DNA of 64,000 nucleotides from an uncultured Planctomycetota bacterium (GTDB taxonomy: Bacteria; Planctomycetota; Planctomycetia; Isosphaerales; Isosphaeraceae), in assembly GCA_963737655.1 (NCBI GenBank), contig CAVTTN010000002.1:3584001-3648000 (forward strand), read 5' to 3'. Below, piece by piece: positions 13,337-58,391 of this stretch. A program made the translations under genes and the position numbers. Each line of letters starts with the position of its first letter. Positions within the stretch are counted from its first letter, which is position 1. The notes below the pieces were generated by a model that did not search any database, was not told where the DNA came from, and saw only the letters and a program-made list of their open reading frames with translations.

Positions 13337-14676
13337 TTAGATGAACTCCCGGATCGCCGATCCCTTATCGACCAGGCGAATCGGCTGGCCGTCGGGCGTC
13401 TCGAACTTCGTCGCGGGGTCGATCCCCAGGAGGGTATAGATCGTGGCGGCGAGGTCGGCCGGGGTGATCGGGCGCTCGACCGGGGAATCCCCTCGCGGGT
13501 CGGTCCGGCCCAGGACGAGCCCTCCGGGCGTCCCGGCACCGGCCACGATCACGCTGTTGGCCCGTCCGTGGTGGTCGCGGCCGGCGTTGGGATTGATCTT
13601 CGGCGTCCGGCCGAACTCCCCCATGCAGACCACCAGGGTCGAATCCAGCAATCCCCGCTCGGCCAGGTCGGCCAGGAGGACCGAGAGGCCCTGGTCGATC
13701 GGCGGGGCCAGGGTATTCTTGATGGTGGGGAAGTTCTGCTGGTGGGTATCCCAGCCGGCCGGACCGGCCCCCCGGTCATTGATCGTGACGAACGGAACGC
13801 CCCTCTCGACGAGCCTCCGGGCGAGGAGGCAGGCCTGGCCGACCGGGTTCCGGCCGAAGCGGTCGCGGACCTCCGCCGGCTCGGTCTCGATCCGGAACGC
13901 GGCCTGGGCCTCGCCCGAGGTCAGCAGGTCGTAGGCCTTGTCGATGAACTGGTCTCGGCTGGTCGTCAGGGGGGTCTCGCTCAGGTCGTGGGTGAAGCCG
14001 TCGAGCGAGCGGATCATCGACCGTCGGCGCCGAAGCCGTTCGAGGGTCAGGCGATCGGGCGGGGTGAGGTCCCGGACGCGGAACCCGGCGCCGTTGGGAT
14101 CACCGCCGACGGCGAACGGATCGTACGCCGGGGTCAGGTAGCCGCCGCCGGAGAAGGCCGGGGCCTCGGGCACCGCGACATACGGCGGGAGGACCGAATT
14201 GGCCCCGAAGCCGATCGCCTTGGCCACGGCGCTGCCGAAGCTCGGGTAGACCAGGGCCGGGCTGGGCCGATACCCGGTCTGGAGGTGGTGCGAGGCCCGG
14301 CCGTGGTCGGCCTCGGGCGAAGTCATGGACCGGATCAGGGCGAGTTGATGCATCGAGGCCGCCAGCCTCGGCAGGACCTCGGAGATCGTCACGCCCGGGA
14401 CGCTCGTGGCGATCGGCTTGAACTCGCCCCGGACGTCGGCGGGCGCCTCGGGCTTGGGGTCGAAGGTGTCGATGTGGACGGCCCGCCCTCCTGCCAGATC
14501 AGGATGCAGCTCTTGGCCCGAGGGGCGATTTTCAGGCCGGTGGAGGGGTCGGAGGCCAGGGAACGGCCCCGGAGGAGGTCGGCCAGGCCGAGCCCGAAGG
14601 CGCTCAGGGCACCGACCCGGAGGGCTTCCCGGCGGCTGGGTCCGCGGCACGGCCGATCGCTCATCGGGGGAGTCAT
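13337..14676 (-). CDS. DUF1501 protein (frameshift near 14480)
   Basis: SRREAL leader, GG(PS)HIDTFDPKP, WDTH, GEFGRTP, GRDHH. Confidence 0.88.
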
Positions 14677-14701
14677 GGCGAGGCTCCTTCGGGCTTCTGG
14701 G

Positions 14702-17262
14702 TCAGTGATTGAATGCGAACTCTCGGGAATTGAGCAGGGCCCAGAACAGGTCCTCGGCGGCGTCCCGGAACGAGGACGCGGACTTCAGCTCGGCCGACCA
14801 GTGCGAGAGCTCCTCGGACGTCGGCGGCCGGCAGAGGGCCTTCATGTACAGGAGTTCCACCAGGTCGCCCGGCTCGGGGTTCTCGACCAGGAGGTTCGAG
14901 AGGTAGCCGTTGAGGCCCGGTGACCTTGCTGTCGACCACGTCGCCGCCGATCAGCAGGAGGGCCTGGCGGAGGCTGAGCGACGGCGTGGCCGCCGGGGAG
15001 CAGGAGTTGGTCCTCGGACACCGGCCGAACGTGTCCAGCAGGACGCTCGGCACGCTCGGGTCGAAGACCTCGATCGCCTTCCTCTTGCCAAGCTGGCCGA
15101 AGCGAAGCTCGGAGCCGGTCACCGTGGCCAGGGCGTCGGCCATCTGGTGGGCCGTCAGCGGGCGGGGCAGGTGGTGCGAGAAGAAGCGGGTATCCCCGGC
15201 GTTCCCCGGCAAGGTCGCCGAGGAGAGGCCATACGCCTCGCTCGTCACGATCGTTCGGATCAGGTCGCGAACGTCGTACTTGTGCTCGACGAAGTGCCTG
15301 GCCAGCGCGTCGAGCAGCTCGGGGTGAACGGGTGGGTTCGCCGGGCTGAGGTCGTCGGCCGGCTCGGCCAGTCCTCGGCCCGAAGAACTGGGCCCAGGCC
15401 CAGTTGACCGTGGCGCGGGCGAAATACGGATTCTCGGGCCGGGTCATCCAGTCGGCCAGGGCCTTTCGCGGGTCTTCGTCCTTGGAAACCTTGACCGGAG
15501 AACCGTCCAGGAGCCTCATCTCGGCCGGCTTCTTGGTTCGGAGGTGCTCGACCGTGCCGTCGGGCAAGACGCCGATCTTCAATCGGCCCATCATCGCCCC
15601 GGCGGGCTGGTTGCGGTAGTTCCCCGAGGGCCCGACCTTGGCGAAGATCGCCGCCAGGCCGAAATAGTCGTCCTGGGTCCAGACATCAAACGGATGGTCA
15701 TGGCACTGGGCACAGCGGAGCCGGAGGCCGAGGAACCTCTGGGCCGTCTGCTCGGCGGCGACCTTCGGATCATACATGCCGTCGGCCGCGTAGTTCACCG
15801 GGCCGCCGGTCGCCTTGTCGTACGGGTCGCCCAGCGAGGTCAGGAGCTCGCGGACGACCTGGTCCCACGGCGTATTCTGCTCCAGGCGATGCTTCATCCA
15901 GACCTTGTAGGGGTCCGACCCGTTACCGAACCGGGCCTGGCTGATCTGGAGGAGGTCGCCGAGCTTGATCTCCCAGAACGAGACGAAATCGGCGCTCTTG
16001 AGGAGCTCCTCGACCTTCTTCTCCCTCTTATCGGGGTCTGTATCCTTGAGGAATTCGCGGACCTGCCAGGAATCGGGCTGCTGGGCGGTCAGGTCGAGCG
16101 TGACCCGGCGGAGCCAGGCGGCATCGTTGGCCGGAGGGCTGGGCGGCACCTTGAGCGATTCCAGCCTCTTGAACAGCTCGACGTCGATCACGTTCCGCCG
16201 GGGCAGCTTGGCGAAGTCGAACGCCAGGGCGGGGTTGATGATCGTGGCCAGGCGGGTGGCGACGACCTCCGAGCCGTACCGGACGATCAGATCCGCCTCG
16301 GCCCGACGGAGCAACCGCGCCGACCCTTCGGGCGAGACCTCGACGGCCGAGTCGTCGTTGACCTTGAACGAGGCGAGCCGGGTCACGTCGCGAGTCCGGC
16401 CGTCGGAGAACGTCGCCACGACCCGAAGTTGCCTCGGGCCAGGGGCATCGAGCCGGGAATCGGCCGGTTCGACCAAGAGCTTGGTCAGTTTCCTCGGCTC
16501 CAGGCCCTTCCTCTCCGGCGCGCCGTCGGCGATCCAGCGGAGGAGGACCCGGTGGGCGTCCGTCCCGGAGACGATTCGCTGGCCGCCTCCGTGGGGGGTC
16601 CGGCCCGTCGCCTTCCTCATCAGGAGGCTTTCCTCGGGGTCGAATCGGAGGAGCCGCCGCCCGCCGGCCTCCCGGACGATCGCCTGATAGTCCCCCTCGG
16701 GATCGTAGCCGAACAGCGAGAGGTGGAAGCCGTTCTGGCCGTCGGCCTTGCCGTGGCAGCCGCCGGTGTTGCAACCCGCTCGGGTCAGAAGCGGCACGAT
16801 ATCGGTCGCGAAATCCCAGGAACGCCCCGCGGCCGGCTCGGGCTGGACCTGGACTTCCGCCCGGATGACCTCGTCGCCGATCTTGCCTTCGATCGTGGCC
16901 TTCCCCGGGCCAATCGGCCGGAAATAGCCGTTGGAGACCGGAACCAGAATTCCCGGAGGCTCGACGGTCCAGGCCGCATCGCCCGTGACGTCGCGGACGC
17001 CTCCGCCGGGCCCCTTCCCTTCGACCAGAAGCTGCAAGCCGGGATCGCCCGGGTCCAGGCTGGCCGTCGCCGGGATCACGCGAAAGGCAGGCTCCTTCGG
17101 GCGTGCCGGCGCGGGCGGCGGCGGTTCCGGCCGTCGGGCAACCTCCGGCTTCGGCCCCGAAGCGGCGGGCTTGGGCGTCGCGGTCTTCGTCGCGCCGCCT
17201 CCGCAGCCCGCCAGGAATGCCAGGACTAGCGGCAGGCCGCCCTTCGCGATTCGCCGTCTCAT
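14702..17262 (-). CDS. Lipoprotein with Ig-like, DUF1549 and DUF1553 domains (frameshifts near 15380 and 14920)
   Basis: LAGC lipobox, CNTGGCH, CAQCHDHPF, FGRCPR, C-terminal LNSREFAFNH. Confidence 0.85.
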
Positions 17263-55081: not shown

Positions 55082-56089
55082 TCAACCCTCCGCCGCCGGA
55101 CCGCCCCTCTCGTCAAACAGGCGGCTGACGCTCTCCCGCTTGTGGATCGAGAGGATGGCTCGGGCGAACAGAGGGGCGACGCTCACGACCGTGCAGTTTT
55201 GCGGGAGAGGCTCGGCCCGGTAGCCGATCGTGTCCGTGAGGACCAGCTCCTTGATCGGGCTCTTCGCGATCTTCGAGGCCGATCCCTTCGAGAAGACGCC
55301 GTGGGAGACGCAGGCATAAATGTCCCGCGCGCCTCGCGACTTGCAGGCGTTGGCCATCTCGATCAGGGTGCCGCCGGAGATGGTGAAGTCGTCCACGATC
55401 AGGACGTTCTTGCCCTGGACCTCGCCGATCACCGAATAGATCTCGGCGCGTTCCTTGTGGTCCATCCTCATCTTGTTGCCGATCACGACCGGGGCGTTCA
55501 TCATCTCGGCAAATCGGTACGCCTGCTTGCCGAACCCGACGTCGGGGCTGGCGACGACGAGGTCGGGGATCTCCTTCTGGCGGAAATAGTCGCTGAGGAT
55601 CGGCATCGCGTAGAGGTGATCGACGGGGACCTTGAAGAACCCCTGGATCTGGGGCGCGTGGAGGTCCATCGTCAGCACGCGGTCGGCCCCGGCAGCCTCG
55701 ATGGCGTCGGCCACGACCCGGGCGCGGATCGACACGCGGGGCTCGTCCTTCTTGTCCCCCTTGGCGTAGGAGAAGAACGGGATCACCGCGGTGACCTGGC
55801 TGGCGCTGGCGCGCTTGAAGGCGTCGATCCAGAACAGGAGCTCGACGAGGTTGTCGTTCACCGGGTATTCGGTCCCCTGGATGATGTAGACGTCCCGGCC
55901 TCGGACGTTCTCCAGGATTCGGACGAAAATGTTCCCCTCGCTGAAGATGTGGGTCTCCGACTTCGCCAGGCTCGTGCCGATGTGGCCGCAGACCGCCTTG
56001 CCCAGCGTGCTGCTGGCCCGGCCGGCGAAGATCTTGAGCTCGCCGTAAGGGTCGGCTTGCTTCGAGGTGCAGACCAGCGAGTTGTCCAT
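55082..56089 (-). CDS. prs: Ribose-phosphate pyrophosphokinase
   Basis: FSEGNI, MDLHAPQIQGFF, SPDVG, IVDDFTISGGT. Confidence 0.94.
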   Translation of the reverse strand: MDNSLVCTSKQADPYGELKIFAGRASSTLGKAVCGHIGTSLAKSETHIFSEGNIFVRILENVRGRDVYIIQGTEYPVNDNLVELLFWIDAFKRASASQVTAVIPFFSYAKGDKKDEPRVSIRARVVADAIEAAGADRVLTMDLHAPQIQGFFKVPVDHLYAMPILSDYFRQKEIPDLVVASPDVGFGKQAYRFAEMMNAPVVIGNKMRMDHKERAEIYSVIGEVQGKNVLIVDDFTISGGTLIEMANACKSRGARDIYACVSHGVFSKGSASKIAKSPIKELVLTDTIGYRAEPLPQNCTVVSVAPLFARAILSIHKRESVSRLFDERGGPAAEG

Positions 56090-56338
56090 CGGTCTCGACC
56101 TCGCGACGCCCGGGAGGGATGGGGGTTCAGCCAATCTTAACAGTGGGCCCGGGTCGGGTACAGGCCGACGGTCCCCCTCGGGGCCTTCCGCCGCGGGCCG
56201 CATAGTCCGTGGTCGGCGGAGGCCCTCGACACCAAGGATTTGACTTTCCCACGAGAATATCGAGAATCATACAACTTTGACGGCCTGGGTCGACACGCCG
56301 ATCGGACGCGAGGGCCGGGGCCGCAAGGATCCAACCTC

Positions 56339-57310
56339 ATGAACTGGACCGAATTCACTCAGGTCCGCGACGACGCCCTGGCGGCCGACTCCTATTGGTC
56401 CCCGCTCTACGCCATCTTCGGGGAGCAGGGCGAGAACAACACCCGATTCCTCCTGGAGCGCGACAAGGCCCTGGAGGACCACAACCTGTTCCCCCTGACC
56501 GAGCTGGACTACGAAAGCTTATTCGGGGATTTCGCGATGGGCCGTGTCTCGGGCGACGGGATCTTCGTCTGCCTGATTCACAAGGGGCGCCACATGATCC
56601 GGACGGGAACGATGAACGCCTCGGGCCACCCCGCCCTGGCCGGAACGGCGCCGGTTTTCTGCGCGGGGGAGATCACCTCGACCGACTTCAAGTTCCAGAG
56701 CGGACACTACCGGCCCACGAAGCGTCACGTCTTCCTCTTCATGTGCAGATTCATCGACAATTCCTGCCAGAACCTCCTCGGGAACGCACGAGACGCGATG
56801 GTCCAGCAGATTGCCGCCATGCCCCTCACGGTCTGGCGAGATGAGAACAGCTCCTATTCGACCCGCTTCGGGGACGTGGGATTTCACGGTAACGCCGACC
56901 TGCATCCGCCGAGCACGCCGACGGTCAAGAGGATCGAGGCCGACCGCTCCGCCCGCGTCCCTCTTCCGGTCTTCGAGAGTCCCGAGCCGATCGTGCCGAC
57001 TCGCTCGCGGTCCAATGCCGTGAGTTCCGAGGGCGGCCTCGGCGTGCCGACGGTTGCGAAGGCCGCGCCGGCCAGCCCGCAGGTCTTCCAGGACTTCTCG
57101 AAGGTCGCGAAATGCCAGCGATGCTCCCAGAAGTTCGGTGTCTTCCGCAGTAAGTACACATGTGGGAAGTGCGGTCGGGCGATCTGCAAGGCGTGCCGAT
57201 TGCCGAAGAAAGCCGTCCGAGACCCGGCCGTCGCCTCCGCGTCCGTGGCCCAGCCGGGGAAGGCCGGCGCGGTCCGGATCTGCCTGGACTGTGGGCCCAA
57301 GGTCTGCTGA
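56339..57310 (+). CDS. Orphan protein: toxin-like SGHYRP domain + C-terminal FYVE-like zinc finger
   Basis: GHPALAG..VFCAGEI..QSGHYRP; CQRC..F..CGKCG..CKAC..RICLDC. Confidence 0.8.
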
Positions 57311-57453
57311 GTCCGAGGACCCGGAGGGGGGATCGACGATCCATCGGGTCCTCGTCCCTCGGGAACCTGTCCGGCTTCCCCGACGGCCCGGTTTGGATTA
57401 TCCTCAGTGGGCACAGTCCGCATCGCCCGCCCCGGACGGAGGTCTCCCCGACG

Positions 57454-58391
57454 ATGAAGATCATCCTGGCCAATCCCCGAGGCTTCTGCGCGGGGGTGAA
57501 CATGGCCATCGAGAGCCTGGAAAGGTCGCTGGATCTGTTCGGGGCGCCGTTGTTCGTCTATCACGAGATCGTCCACAACAAATACGTCGTCGAACGTTTC
57601 AAGAAGCGCGGGGTGGTCTTCGTCGAATCGCTCCAGGAAGTGCCGGAAGGCGCCCCCTGCTCTACAGCGCCCACGGCGTCTCCCCCCAGATCCGCGCCGA
57701 GGCCCGCGAACGCCGGCTCCGCGCGATCGACGCGACGTGCCCCCTGGTGACGAAGGTCCACCTCGAAGCGGTCAAGTACGCGAGCGAAGGATACACCATC
57801 GTCCTGATTGGACACGAAGGGCACGACGAGGTCATCGGCACGATGGGCGAGGCGCCGGACCGGATGATCCTGGTCGAGACGGCCGAGGACGTCGATCGCC
57901 TGGAGATCAATCCCGCAAAAATTGCCTACTTGACCCAGACCACCCTCAGCGTGGACGACGCGAACGTCGTGATCGACGCCCTACGCCGCAAGTTCCCCCA
58001 GATCGCCAATCCTCCCAAGGATGACATCTGCTACGCCACGCAGAACCGGCAAGAGGCGGTCCGCGACCTGGCGACCCGGGCCGACGTGGTCCTGGTTCTC
58101 GGCAGCCAGAATAGCTCCAACAGCAAGAGGCTGGCCGAGATCGCCGGGGCCCTGGGCCCTCATGCCCACCTGATCGACGGCGTCAGCGAGATCCGCCCGG
58201 AGTGGTTCGCCGGTGCGGAAACCGTTCTGATCACGGCCGGCGCCAGCGCCCCCGAAGACGTGGTCCTGGAGTGCGTCGAATACCTCGAACGCGAGTATGG
58301 CGCGACGGTCTCCGAGGAAACGATCCGCGAGGAGAACGTTCACTTCCCCCTGCCCCGGACGCTTCGCGAGCTTCTGCCGGTCCTGGGTTGA
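57454..58391 (+). CDS. ispH: 4-hydroxy-3-methylbut-2-enyl diphosphate reductase (frameshift near 57655)
   Basis: [36 protein letters not shown]. Confidence 0.94.

Follow-up and report, generated by a model that had tools for sequence, protein, structure and literature searches.

We examined a 64,000-nucleotide window of DNA from an uncultured Planctomycetota bacterium of the Isosphaeraceae (GenBank assembly GCA_963737655.1, contig CAVTTN010000002.1, positions 3,584,001 to 3,648,000 of the forward strand) and describe here one open reading frame (ORF) in it, located at 56339..57310 on the plus strand. This gene encodes a protein of 323 amino acids that consists of an N-terminal enzyme-like domain, a low-complexity linker, and a C-terminal FYVE-type zinc finger. 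The finger is a FYVE domain by fold and by score, and it is not of the canonical type, with which eukaryotic proteins bind phosphatidylinositol 3-phosphate (PI3P) and so locate endosome membranes. Judging from sequence comparisons, the gene is an atypical member of an undescribed, cross-phylum bacterial family in which an enzyme-like domain is joined to a FYVE finger. With a probability only slightly better than even (roughly 0.55), this would be a family of secreted, membrane-addressed effectors aimed at eukaryotes, the targeting of which has been altered in the copy described here.

The finger occupies 57086..57310 (+; residues 250-323) and carries a net charge of +13. An earlier note on this DNA had pointed to eight cysteines with FYVE spacing in this interval, and these are indeed present (Cys 259, 262, 275, 278, 283, 286, 315, and 318), along with a terminal Cys 323. 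The Pfam FYVE model PF01363 matches the protein with a score of 36.2 bits (E 6.4e-9; gathering cut-off 27.8 bits) and the domain alone with a score of 40.4 bits. Competing Pfam models score lower on the finger, with 16-20 bits for FYVE_2 and no more than 13 bits for RING, B-box, AN1, and C1. The AlphaFold model of the finger has predicted local distance difference test (pLDDT) values of 87-97 per 10-residue block across residues 251-320. When the model was compared with 48,161 chains, the closest folds were the FYVE domains of endofin (Z 9.5, root-mean-square deviation [rmsd] 2.3 over 67 residues), EEA1 (Z 9.3, rmsd 1.9 over 62 residues), and RUFY1 (Z 8.9, rmsd 2.0 over 60 residues). FYVE domains make up the top six VIA rows and the top twelve Foldseek rows, although no Foldseek row reaches an E value of 0.001. 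Since FYVE is the best match by both sequence and fold, the alternative that the finger is a bacterial zinc ribbon or a RING-like domain unrelated to FYVE is largely ruled out.

The earlier note had regarded the protein as an orphan. It looks like one because a word-index search, when queried with the full-length sequence, returns nothing but the protein itself. That description does not survive an exhaustive search with the N-terminal domain (residues 1-186), which yields 37 matches: the protein itself, 33 true relatives, and three spurious repeat proteins (P0030, P0032, and P0037) that were dropped. Two loci, L024 of the 7 genome loci and L037 of the 13 metagenome loci, were likewise dropped as spurious. 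The Pfam FYVE model is over its cut-off in 24 of the 33 relatives, and an end-to-end alignment of our protein with one of them, P0008, shows 32% identity (E 2e-38). The motifs by which we recognize a member of this family (G-H-P-x-L, C-A-G, and S-G-H-[YF]-x-P) are all found in the protein. Residue conservation was assessed in two sets. The first is an alignment of 33 sequences (A1) that was not motif-selected and leaves out P0005, whose tail looks frameshifted; the second is a widened set of 49 sequences with less than 70% identity, taken from 77 candidates that had been pre-filtered on the S121-H123 motif. A Cys-rich tail is present in 42 of these 49 sequences, and 39 of the 42 fingers retain both WxxD/N and HHCR. 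In a tree of the N-terminal domains (FastTree, midpoint root), the protein lies among canonical bacterial members, in a subclade with three of them and two members that have other tails (support 0.87). Its branch length is 1.25, and those of several canonical members are 1.18-1.30. Within this subclade, P0015 and P0034 have a different Cys-rich tail; that of P0015 has a C4-H-C3 pattern that is PHD-finger-like by eye and has no Pfam match.

All of the named hosts of the family are bacterial, and counting this genome they fall into five phyla with a sporadic distribution. They are Terracidiphilus, Pseudomonas sp. LFM046, Metapseudomonas lalkuanensis, Paraburkholderia jirisanensis, Sorangium, Thermohalobaculum, Facilibium, two Thiotrichales, and a Lentisphaerae metagenome-assembled genome. 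Several relatives are located on complete or multi-megabase bacterial contigs, some are automatically labelled FYVE zinc finger proteins in databases, and searches of viral contigs, plasmids, and phages gave none. Among longer proteins (362-2000 amino acids), which were searched for further fusions, two Lentisphaerae paralogues were the only matches, which is weak evidence. Close to home, a single-protein query finds the gene in one of 121 genomes of the same family and gives no match in the 120 others, and a profile search finds the N-terminal domain in one of 401 genomes of the phylum. FYVE domains of any kind are over the cut-off in one of the 121 family genomes and 3 of the 401 phylum genomes, in agreement with the statement in the earlier note that they are rare in bacteria. 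The same note proposed that the finger is a horizontally acquired module. The patchy distribution of the N-terminal domain fits horizontal acquisition; a transfer of the finger straight from a eukaryote is not supported, because the finger appears to have come down together with the N-terminal domain, in a bacterial family of two-domain proteins in which most other members are canonical. The simplest history would be that the two-domain gene was inherited whole from other bacteria and that its finger then changed in place. No description of a bacterial FYVE family was found in the literature searched, a scope that left out supplements and most subscription papers. Burroughs et al. (2011) reportedly treat prokaryotic binuclear treble clefs and may mention bacterial FYVE fingers. 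The terms FYVE, Janus, and phosphohistidine are absent from the main text of PMC11696984 and from the searched part of PMC3482391.

In contrast to most of its relatives, the finger described here has lost much of the PI3P signature. Three PI3P motifs of FYVE domains are defined in the accessible part of PMC3017826. Two of the three are altered in this copy, as the earlier note had seen, and its doubt about canonical PI3P binding is thereby supported. The WxxD position reads F-Q-D-F (residues 250-253), where 39 of the 49 family sequences have Trp, and R(R/K)HHCR is replaced by R-S-K-Y-T-C-G (57146..57166, +; residues 270-276). At the central motif, His is found at both positions in 40 of the 49 sequences and Arg follows the Cys in 39 of them, whereas this copy has Tyr, Thr, and Gly. 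The remaining motif, R(V/I)C, is kept as R313-I314-C315, and so are the hydrophobic residues of the turret loop, V268-F269. The net charge of this finger is the highest of 40 fingers, for which the median is +6. The finger shares 30% identity with those of other members, compared with 43% among the other members; the corresponding values for the N-terminal domain are 32% and 38%. When the fingers of 39 relatives are made into a profile that excludes this protein, the profile scores 47.7 bits on the finger, compared with 36-40 bits for the Pfam model, and covers a family-specific insertion before RIC. A sequencing error in the altered motif is unlikely because the substitutions hit several separate codons and leave the frame unchanged. 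According to the part of PMC3017826 that was accessible, electrostatics and the turret loop contribute to the membrane binding of FYVE domains, and motif variants may accept other phosphoinositides. Acidic membranes are the probable ligand of this copy, its lipid specificity being relaxed or shifted, and a retargeting to such membranes would fit its sequence better than decay.

Compared with the eukaryotic FYVE domains (EEA1, 1joc; endofin/ZFYVE16, 3t7l; RUFY1, 2yw8; Hrs, 1dvp; Vps27, 1vfy; PF01363), the finger has the same Cys spacing, turret, R(V/I)C, and basic surface, and it has the same fold, with Z scores of 7.9-9.5 for EEA1, endofin, RUFY1, and Hrs. It differs from them in its bacterial host, in its altered WxxD and HHCR, and in the family insertion before RIC. 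A changed PI3P signature on the same fold is also seen in the variant FYVE domains of ZFYVE19 (1wfk, the second-best sequence match to the finger), protrudin/ZFYVE27 (1x4u), and Arabidopsis class V (WxxG/HNCY). There is no sign of shared descent with these variants, and the one described here sits among canonical bacterial relatives. The myotubularins MTMR3/4 are eukaryotic proteins that combine a phosphatase of the Cys-based protein tyrosine phosphatase fold with a C-terminal FYVE domain. Their architecture is similar to that of our family and their catalytic domain is unrelated, so the likeness is one of analogy only.

The N-terminal domain (residues 1-180; 56339..56878, +), which is conserved and enzyme-like, was overlooked by the earlier note; it is probably the business end of the protein. 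In the 33-sequence alignment, the residues G96, H97, L100, A109, G110, and G122 never vary, and an Asp, C108, S121, H123, and P126 are each shared by at least 90% of the sequences; counts for S121-H123 in the 49-sequence set are inflated by the filtering of its candidates on this motif. His97 of the G-H-P-x-L motif (56627..56629, +), which is invariant in 33/33 and 49/49 sequences, is the candidate catalytic residue. The Ser121-Gly122-His123 loop before a long helix (56699..56707, +) is a candidate phosphate-binding loop by analogy with the Ser94 loop of PHPT1. The domain has no match in the Pfam, NCBIfam, or PHROGs libraries. A PHROGs search over 16 family members gave one weak match, and the PADLOC anti-phage defence models match none of seven family proteins, this whole protein included, at an E value of 0.01. 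In the ESM Atlas, the neighbours of this domain at 0.91-0.92 are clusters without a name and one DUF8093 cluster (21% of members); for a relative there is nothing at 0.9.

When folded alone, the N-terminal domain is modelled with a pLDDT of 83.8 and a predicted template modelling score of 0.81, and its alpha/beta core weakly resembles the human phosphohistidine phosphatase PHPT1 (PHP14; PF05005; PDB 2nmm), which has the Janus/Ocnus fold. PHPT1 is the only chain among the 48,161 with a Z score of at least 5 (Z 5.6, rmsd 3.4, 85 of 113 residues; next row 3.6). A second comparison gave a Z score of 6.0 (next row 4.1), and overall the rmsd is 3.3-3.4 across 85-86 residues with 10-11% identity. The PHPT1 site is given in the accessible part of PMC4817053 as Lys21, His53, Ala54, Arg78, Ser94, and Ala96. 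The order along the chain is similar in our family, with a His at the start of the short first core helix, a frequent Arg on the next strand, and a Ser in the loop ahead of the long helix, and agrees with that of His53, Arg78, and Ser94, this pairing being a reading of the topology and not of a printed alignment. The Arg-like position is Arg in 22 of the 49 family sequences and Glu in this copy. Unlike PHPT1, the family domain has additional helices at both termini, and it also conserves a second His and an Asp. Filing the domain under Ocnus/PHPT1 was rejected because the sequence test failed. We regard the domain as a probable His-dependent enzyme; PHPT1-like phosphohydrolase chemistry is our best guess for it, a tentative assignment to which we give less than even odds.

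The linker between the two domains (56879..57085, +) is Pro/Ser-rich and predicted to be disordered, with pLDDT values below 50 at residues 192-213 and 219-241. In 26 of 45 family linkers we observed a motif, S/T-x-P-I/M/V-x-I/V, that occurs in 1.4 linkers in 1000 shuffles; it was picked by eye from the same data, and the family members are not independent of one another. The motif is repeated in some members, for example in L032:7849-8889. It resembles eukaryotic docking motifs, including mTORC1 docking motifs, for which a review gave no consensus to test. The motif is not in the linker of this copy, so that the eukaryote-facing features are changed throughout: WxxD, the HH pair, the following Arg, and the linker motif are all missing.

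A eukaryotic membrane target is suggested for the family because the PI3P signature is kept in 39 of the 42 bacterial fingers, which is hard to explain otherwise. To our knowledge, bacteria generally lack PI3P. This lipid marks phagosomes and early endosomes, according to the accessible part of PMC7025538. Two members that have no FYVE domain, P0031 and L020, end in Cys-Val-Ile-Leu/Phe, which constitutes a CaaX-like prenylation box; they are sisters and represent one event. Anchors of the CaaX type are used by known bacterial effectors, as far as the consulted portions of the literature describe them. The protein described here has no CaaX box at its end, since its terminal K-V-C is not one.

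We looked at the secretion systems of the genomes that carry the family. TssC, of the type VI secretion system (T6SS), is over the cut-off in all six carrier genomes tested and also in three other genomes of the phylum that were checked and have a FYVE or FYVE-like fusion, compared with a background of 45 of 74 genomes of the host's taxonomic family (61%) and 68 of 301 genomes of its phylum (23%). The presence of a T6SS in every carrier tested is suggestive, and only suggestive, of a link to type VI secretion. In this genome, tssA, B, C, E, F, G, H, and vgrG are over the cut-off and an hcp-like gene is below it, and there are two T6SS clusters and two vgrG genes. A tssC gene at G000:C2:4013.6 kb is split over two frames, probably by an assembly indel. 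Pfam finds no delivery domain in our protein. Secretion genes are located near three of eight long loci. At L019, the next ORF encodes an effector-type protein with a Peptidase_M91 domain and tssE is approximately 4.6 kb away; at L036, tssB is 1.8 kb away; and at L023:3128-11300 (Facilibium), dotL-like and dotB-like genes of a type IVB-like cluster flank a family member that has no FYVE domain. The hrcV gene is over the cut-off in none of five carrier genomes, and a baseplate marker used for extracellular contractile injection systems is found in one of five. No shared small downstream gene of the immunity-like kind is evident by eye in the locus listings of the family. The earlier note saw no signal peptide, and a hydropathy scan, with no signal-peptide predictor run, agrees with this: the N-terminus has no hydrophobic stretch that could be a signal peptide, and no transmembrane segment is seen. 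Such a protein would be compatible with type VI or type IV delivery, and the lack of a signal peptide is no argument against export.

The mechanism that we propose is one in which the family acts inside eukaryotic cells, most likely those of phagotrophic protists, with this gene as a divergent member. Delivery of the proteins would involve no signal peptide and would most likely use type VI systems, or type IVB systems in some hosts, and the canonical FYVE fingers would then dock on the PI3P of phagosomes and early endosomes. At the membrane, the N-terminal domain might act as a His-dependent, PHPT1-type phosphohydrolase on a phosphoprotein or phosphoinositide and thereby disturb phagosome maturation or signalling. 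This last step is the weakest, and taken on its own we would sooner doubt it than assert it. In the present copy, the specific PI3P contacts are gone, and the zinc scaffold, the hydrophobic turret loop V268-F269, and the strongly basic surface are kept or increased. By analogy, the protein would work like the PI3P-anchored effectors of Legionella (LtpM, SetA, RavD, RavZ, RidL, and SidP), which in the portions of the literature consulted likewise combine an enzyme with a membrane address and have no signal peptide; it belongs to none of them. In the same portions of the literature, AnkB, LegG1, LpdA, and Salmonella SifA are CaaX-anchored, a prenyl targeting like that predicted from the ends of P0031 and L020. 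The Legionella PI3P effectors rely on bacterial helical lipid-binding folds, whereas the family described here has a true FYVE finger in free-living bacteria. The accessible part of PMC7025538 states that no eukaryotic phosphoinositide-binding domain has been identified in L. pneumophila effectors, and that of PMC13435680 states that phosphoinositide-binding effectors show little resemblance to eukaryotic modules and have helical bacterial folds.

The gene stands alone at its locus, as the earlier note had stated, between two ORFs that we named from their sequences: a divergent one at 55082..56089 (-), which we take to be prs (ribose-phosphate pyrophosphokinase), and a downstream one at 57454..58391 (+), which is presumably ispH. 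Compared with its counterparts in two same-genus genomes, the latter is frameshifted by one base in a run of C near 57652-57657, probably through an assembly indel. Synteny is broken at the gene (window positions 56089-57454), since prs and ispH have other neighbours in the two same-genus genomes, where the gene upstream of prs is different and ispH adjoins a pyrR-pyrB-pyrC-like set. The spacer between prs and the gene contains a sigma-70-like promoter match at 56240..56267 (+; TTGACT, 16 nt, GAGAAT; a consensus match only), and the interval 55900-57600 has two such sites, compared with 0.1 ± 0.3 in shuffles. Inspection of the sequence reveals a Shine-Dalgarno-like AAGGA at 56325..56329 (+), 9 nt upstream of the ATG, and this start is supported by relatives that have the same M-N/T-W start. 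No flanking repeats or terminator were found around the gene. Third codon positions have a GC content of 0.86 over the whole gene and 0.84 within the finger, its codon adaptation ranks at the 21st percentile among 471 long ORFs, and it is embedded in a 7.6 Mb contig among bacterial genes. Given its ordinary third-position GC content and codon adaptation and the promoter and Shine-Dalgarno-like matches, we conclude that it is a real gene and not a recent arrival.

Several observations weigh against an injected effector. T6SSs are common in this bacterial family in any case, at the 61% given above, and the background rates cover this phylum only and not the phyla of the other hosts. A distance of approximately 370 kb separates the gene from the nearest T6SS cluster, none of its neighbours is recognizable as a vgrG, PAAR, chaperone, or immunity gene, and type VI and type IV genes are absent from the surroundings of five of the eight long loci. 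At L023, the matches to type IVB-like components are all below their cut-offs, and the cluster may be conjugative. Host names are known for only 7 of the 30 clusters looked up. As for the N-terminal domain, its PHPT1 match has a Z score under 8, in the range where common arrangements occur, and Foldseek places PHPT1 22nd (E 0.61, probability 0.41) and gives no match with an E value of 0.001 or lower in the PDB or among viral structures. The Pfam Ocnus model PF05005 is not found in this genome (E 10) or in 15 family N-terminal domains, nor does a profile comparison with PDB sequences recover it. The secretion, lipid binding, and catalysis of the family are themselves predictions.

Three alternative explanations were weighed. 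The family may consist of effectors, with this copy a remnant that is decaying as selection on it has relaxed and that has no target left. The long branch in the N-terminal domain tree would fit decay, as would the changes to WxxD, the HH pair, and the following Arg, the missing linker motif, a finger that is less family-like (30% versus 43%), and the failure of a single-protein query to find a match in the taxonomic family's 120 other genomes. A conserved Asp, found in 46 of the 49 family sequences, is also displaced in this copy, which has Ile at that position and an Asp two residues earlier. The displaced Asp, the missing linker motif, and the divergent finger also count against our preferred reading. 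However, the frame is intact, the eight Cys, RIC, His97, and Ser-Gly-His are all kept, the gene has promoter and ribosome-binding matches and ordinary codon use, the finger has gained basic charge, and several canonical members have similarly long branches. We consider decay improbable. It is also unlikely, in our estimation, that the protein acts inside the bacterium or against other bacteria, with a eukaryote-derived finger that binds bacterial acidic lipids, nucleic acid, or a partner protein and an N-terminal domain that is a His phosphatase of bacterial signalling proteins or an antibacterial toxin. A very basic finger that has no PI3P signature would suit such a role, as would the lack of adjacent secretion genes and the gene's own promoter-like site, and phosphohistidine is central to bacterial two-component signalling. 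This explanation is at odds with the PI3P-specific residues kept in 39 of 42 family fingers and with the CaaX-like ends, which require a eukaryotic prenyltransferase; nor is there a shared immunity-like downstream gene or a PADLOC match for any of the seven proteins. Finally, an artefact, be it an unrelated zinc ribbon or RING-like domain, eukaryotic contamination, or a sequencing error, is very hard to credit. The assembly does carry one-base indels, as seen in ispH and in the tssC split in two frames, but the altered motif differs by substitutions in several codons with the frame unchanged. FYVE is the clear winner by sequence and fold, and the 7.6 Mb contig, the bacterial neighbours, the host-like codon use, and the relatives on complete or multi-megabase bacterial contigs argue against contamination.

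If the effector interpretation is taken further, other bacterial proteins suggest that FYVE may be a reusable address that is joined to different domains. It is conceivable, if rather doubtful in its entirety, that free-living bacteria of several phyla captured FYVE as a plug-in address for polymorphic injected enzymes directed against protist phagosomes. The His domain would then be a bacterial branch of the PHPT1 fold and a membrane-tethered phosphatase, the linker motif would dock on a host complex, and the present copy would be naturally retargeted. The polymorphic set, which is part of this same doubtful whole, would comprise the His domain and nucleotidyltransferase-like, papain-like, hydrolase-like, and JAB-like domains. 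If this were true, mimicry would constitute a second route to PI3P membranes beside the helical folds of the effectors' own, and groups not regarded as intracellular would possess overlooked anti-predator weapons. A FYVE domain in a bacterial genome would be a simple handle for finding such proteins, the unannotated His domain may be a bacterial relative of PHPT1, and this copy beside its canonical relatives would be a natural experiment on FYVE ligand change.

Some further bacterial proteins with FYVE or FYVE-like fingers were seen in the course of the searches. The Lentisphaerae genome G524 (L057 and L064-L072) has 12 FYVE-like matches, eight of which are over the cut-off and two of which are tandem members of our family. 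The partner domains of its other FYVE-like proteins have no Pfam match and are by eye papain-like (N-C-x-E, H-x-F-L, D-P-W) or His-rich and hydrolase-like; the set is possibly an effector arsenal. L054:193-1902 (+), which lies on a contig of 31-33% GC that was binned with genome G251 of the same phylum and presumably belongs to it, encodes a protein of 570 amino acids in which two FYVE fingers in tandem accompany a DUF294 nucleotidyltransferase-like domain. In Facilibium, the 431-amino acid product of L061:1498-2790 (-) has FYVE-like fingers at both ends and, by eye, a G-x-S-x-G hydrolase-like core. Genome G078, which is of the same family as ours and has a T6SS, encodes at L004:1465-2442 (-) a protein of 325 amino acids that ends in a weak FYVE-like finger (19.7 bits) and shows, by eye and with no Pfam support, a JAB/MPN-like H-x-H...S-x-x-D pattern. 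Two long ORFs that directly follow the Lentisphaerae pair (L022:10464-13745 and 14176-16234) have no Pfam or NCBIfam match; one of them has a Ser/Asn-rich N-terminus, and the two are possibly further effectors.
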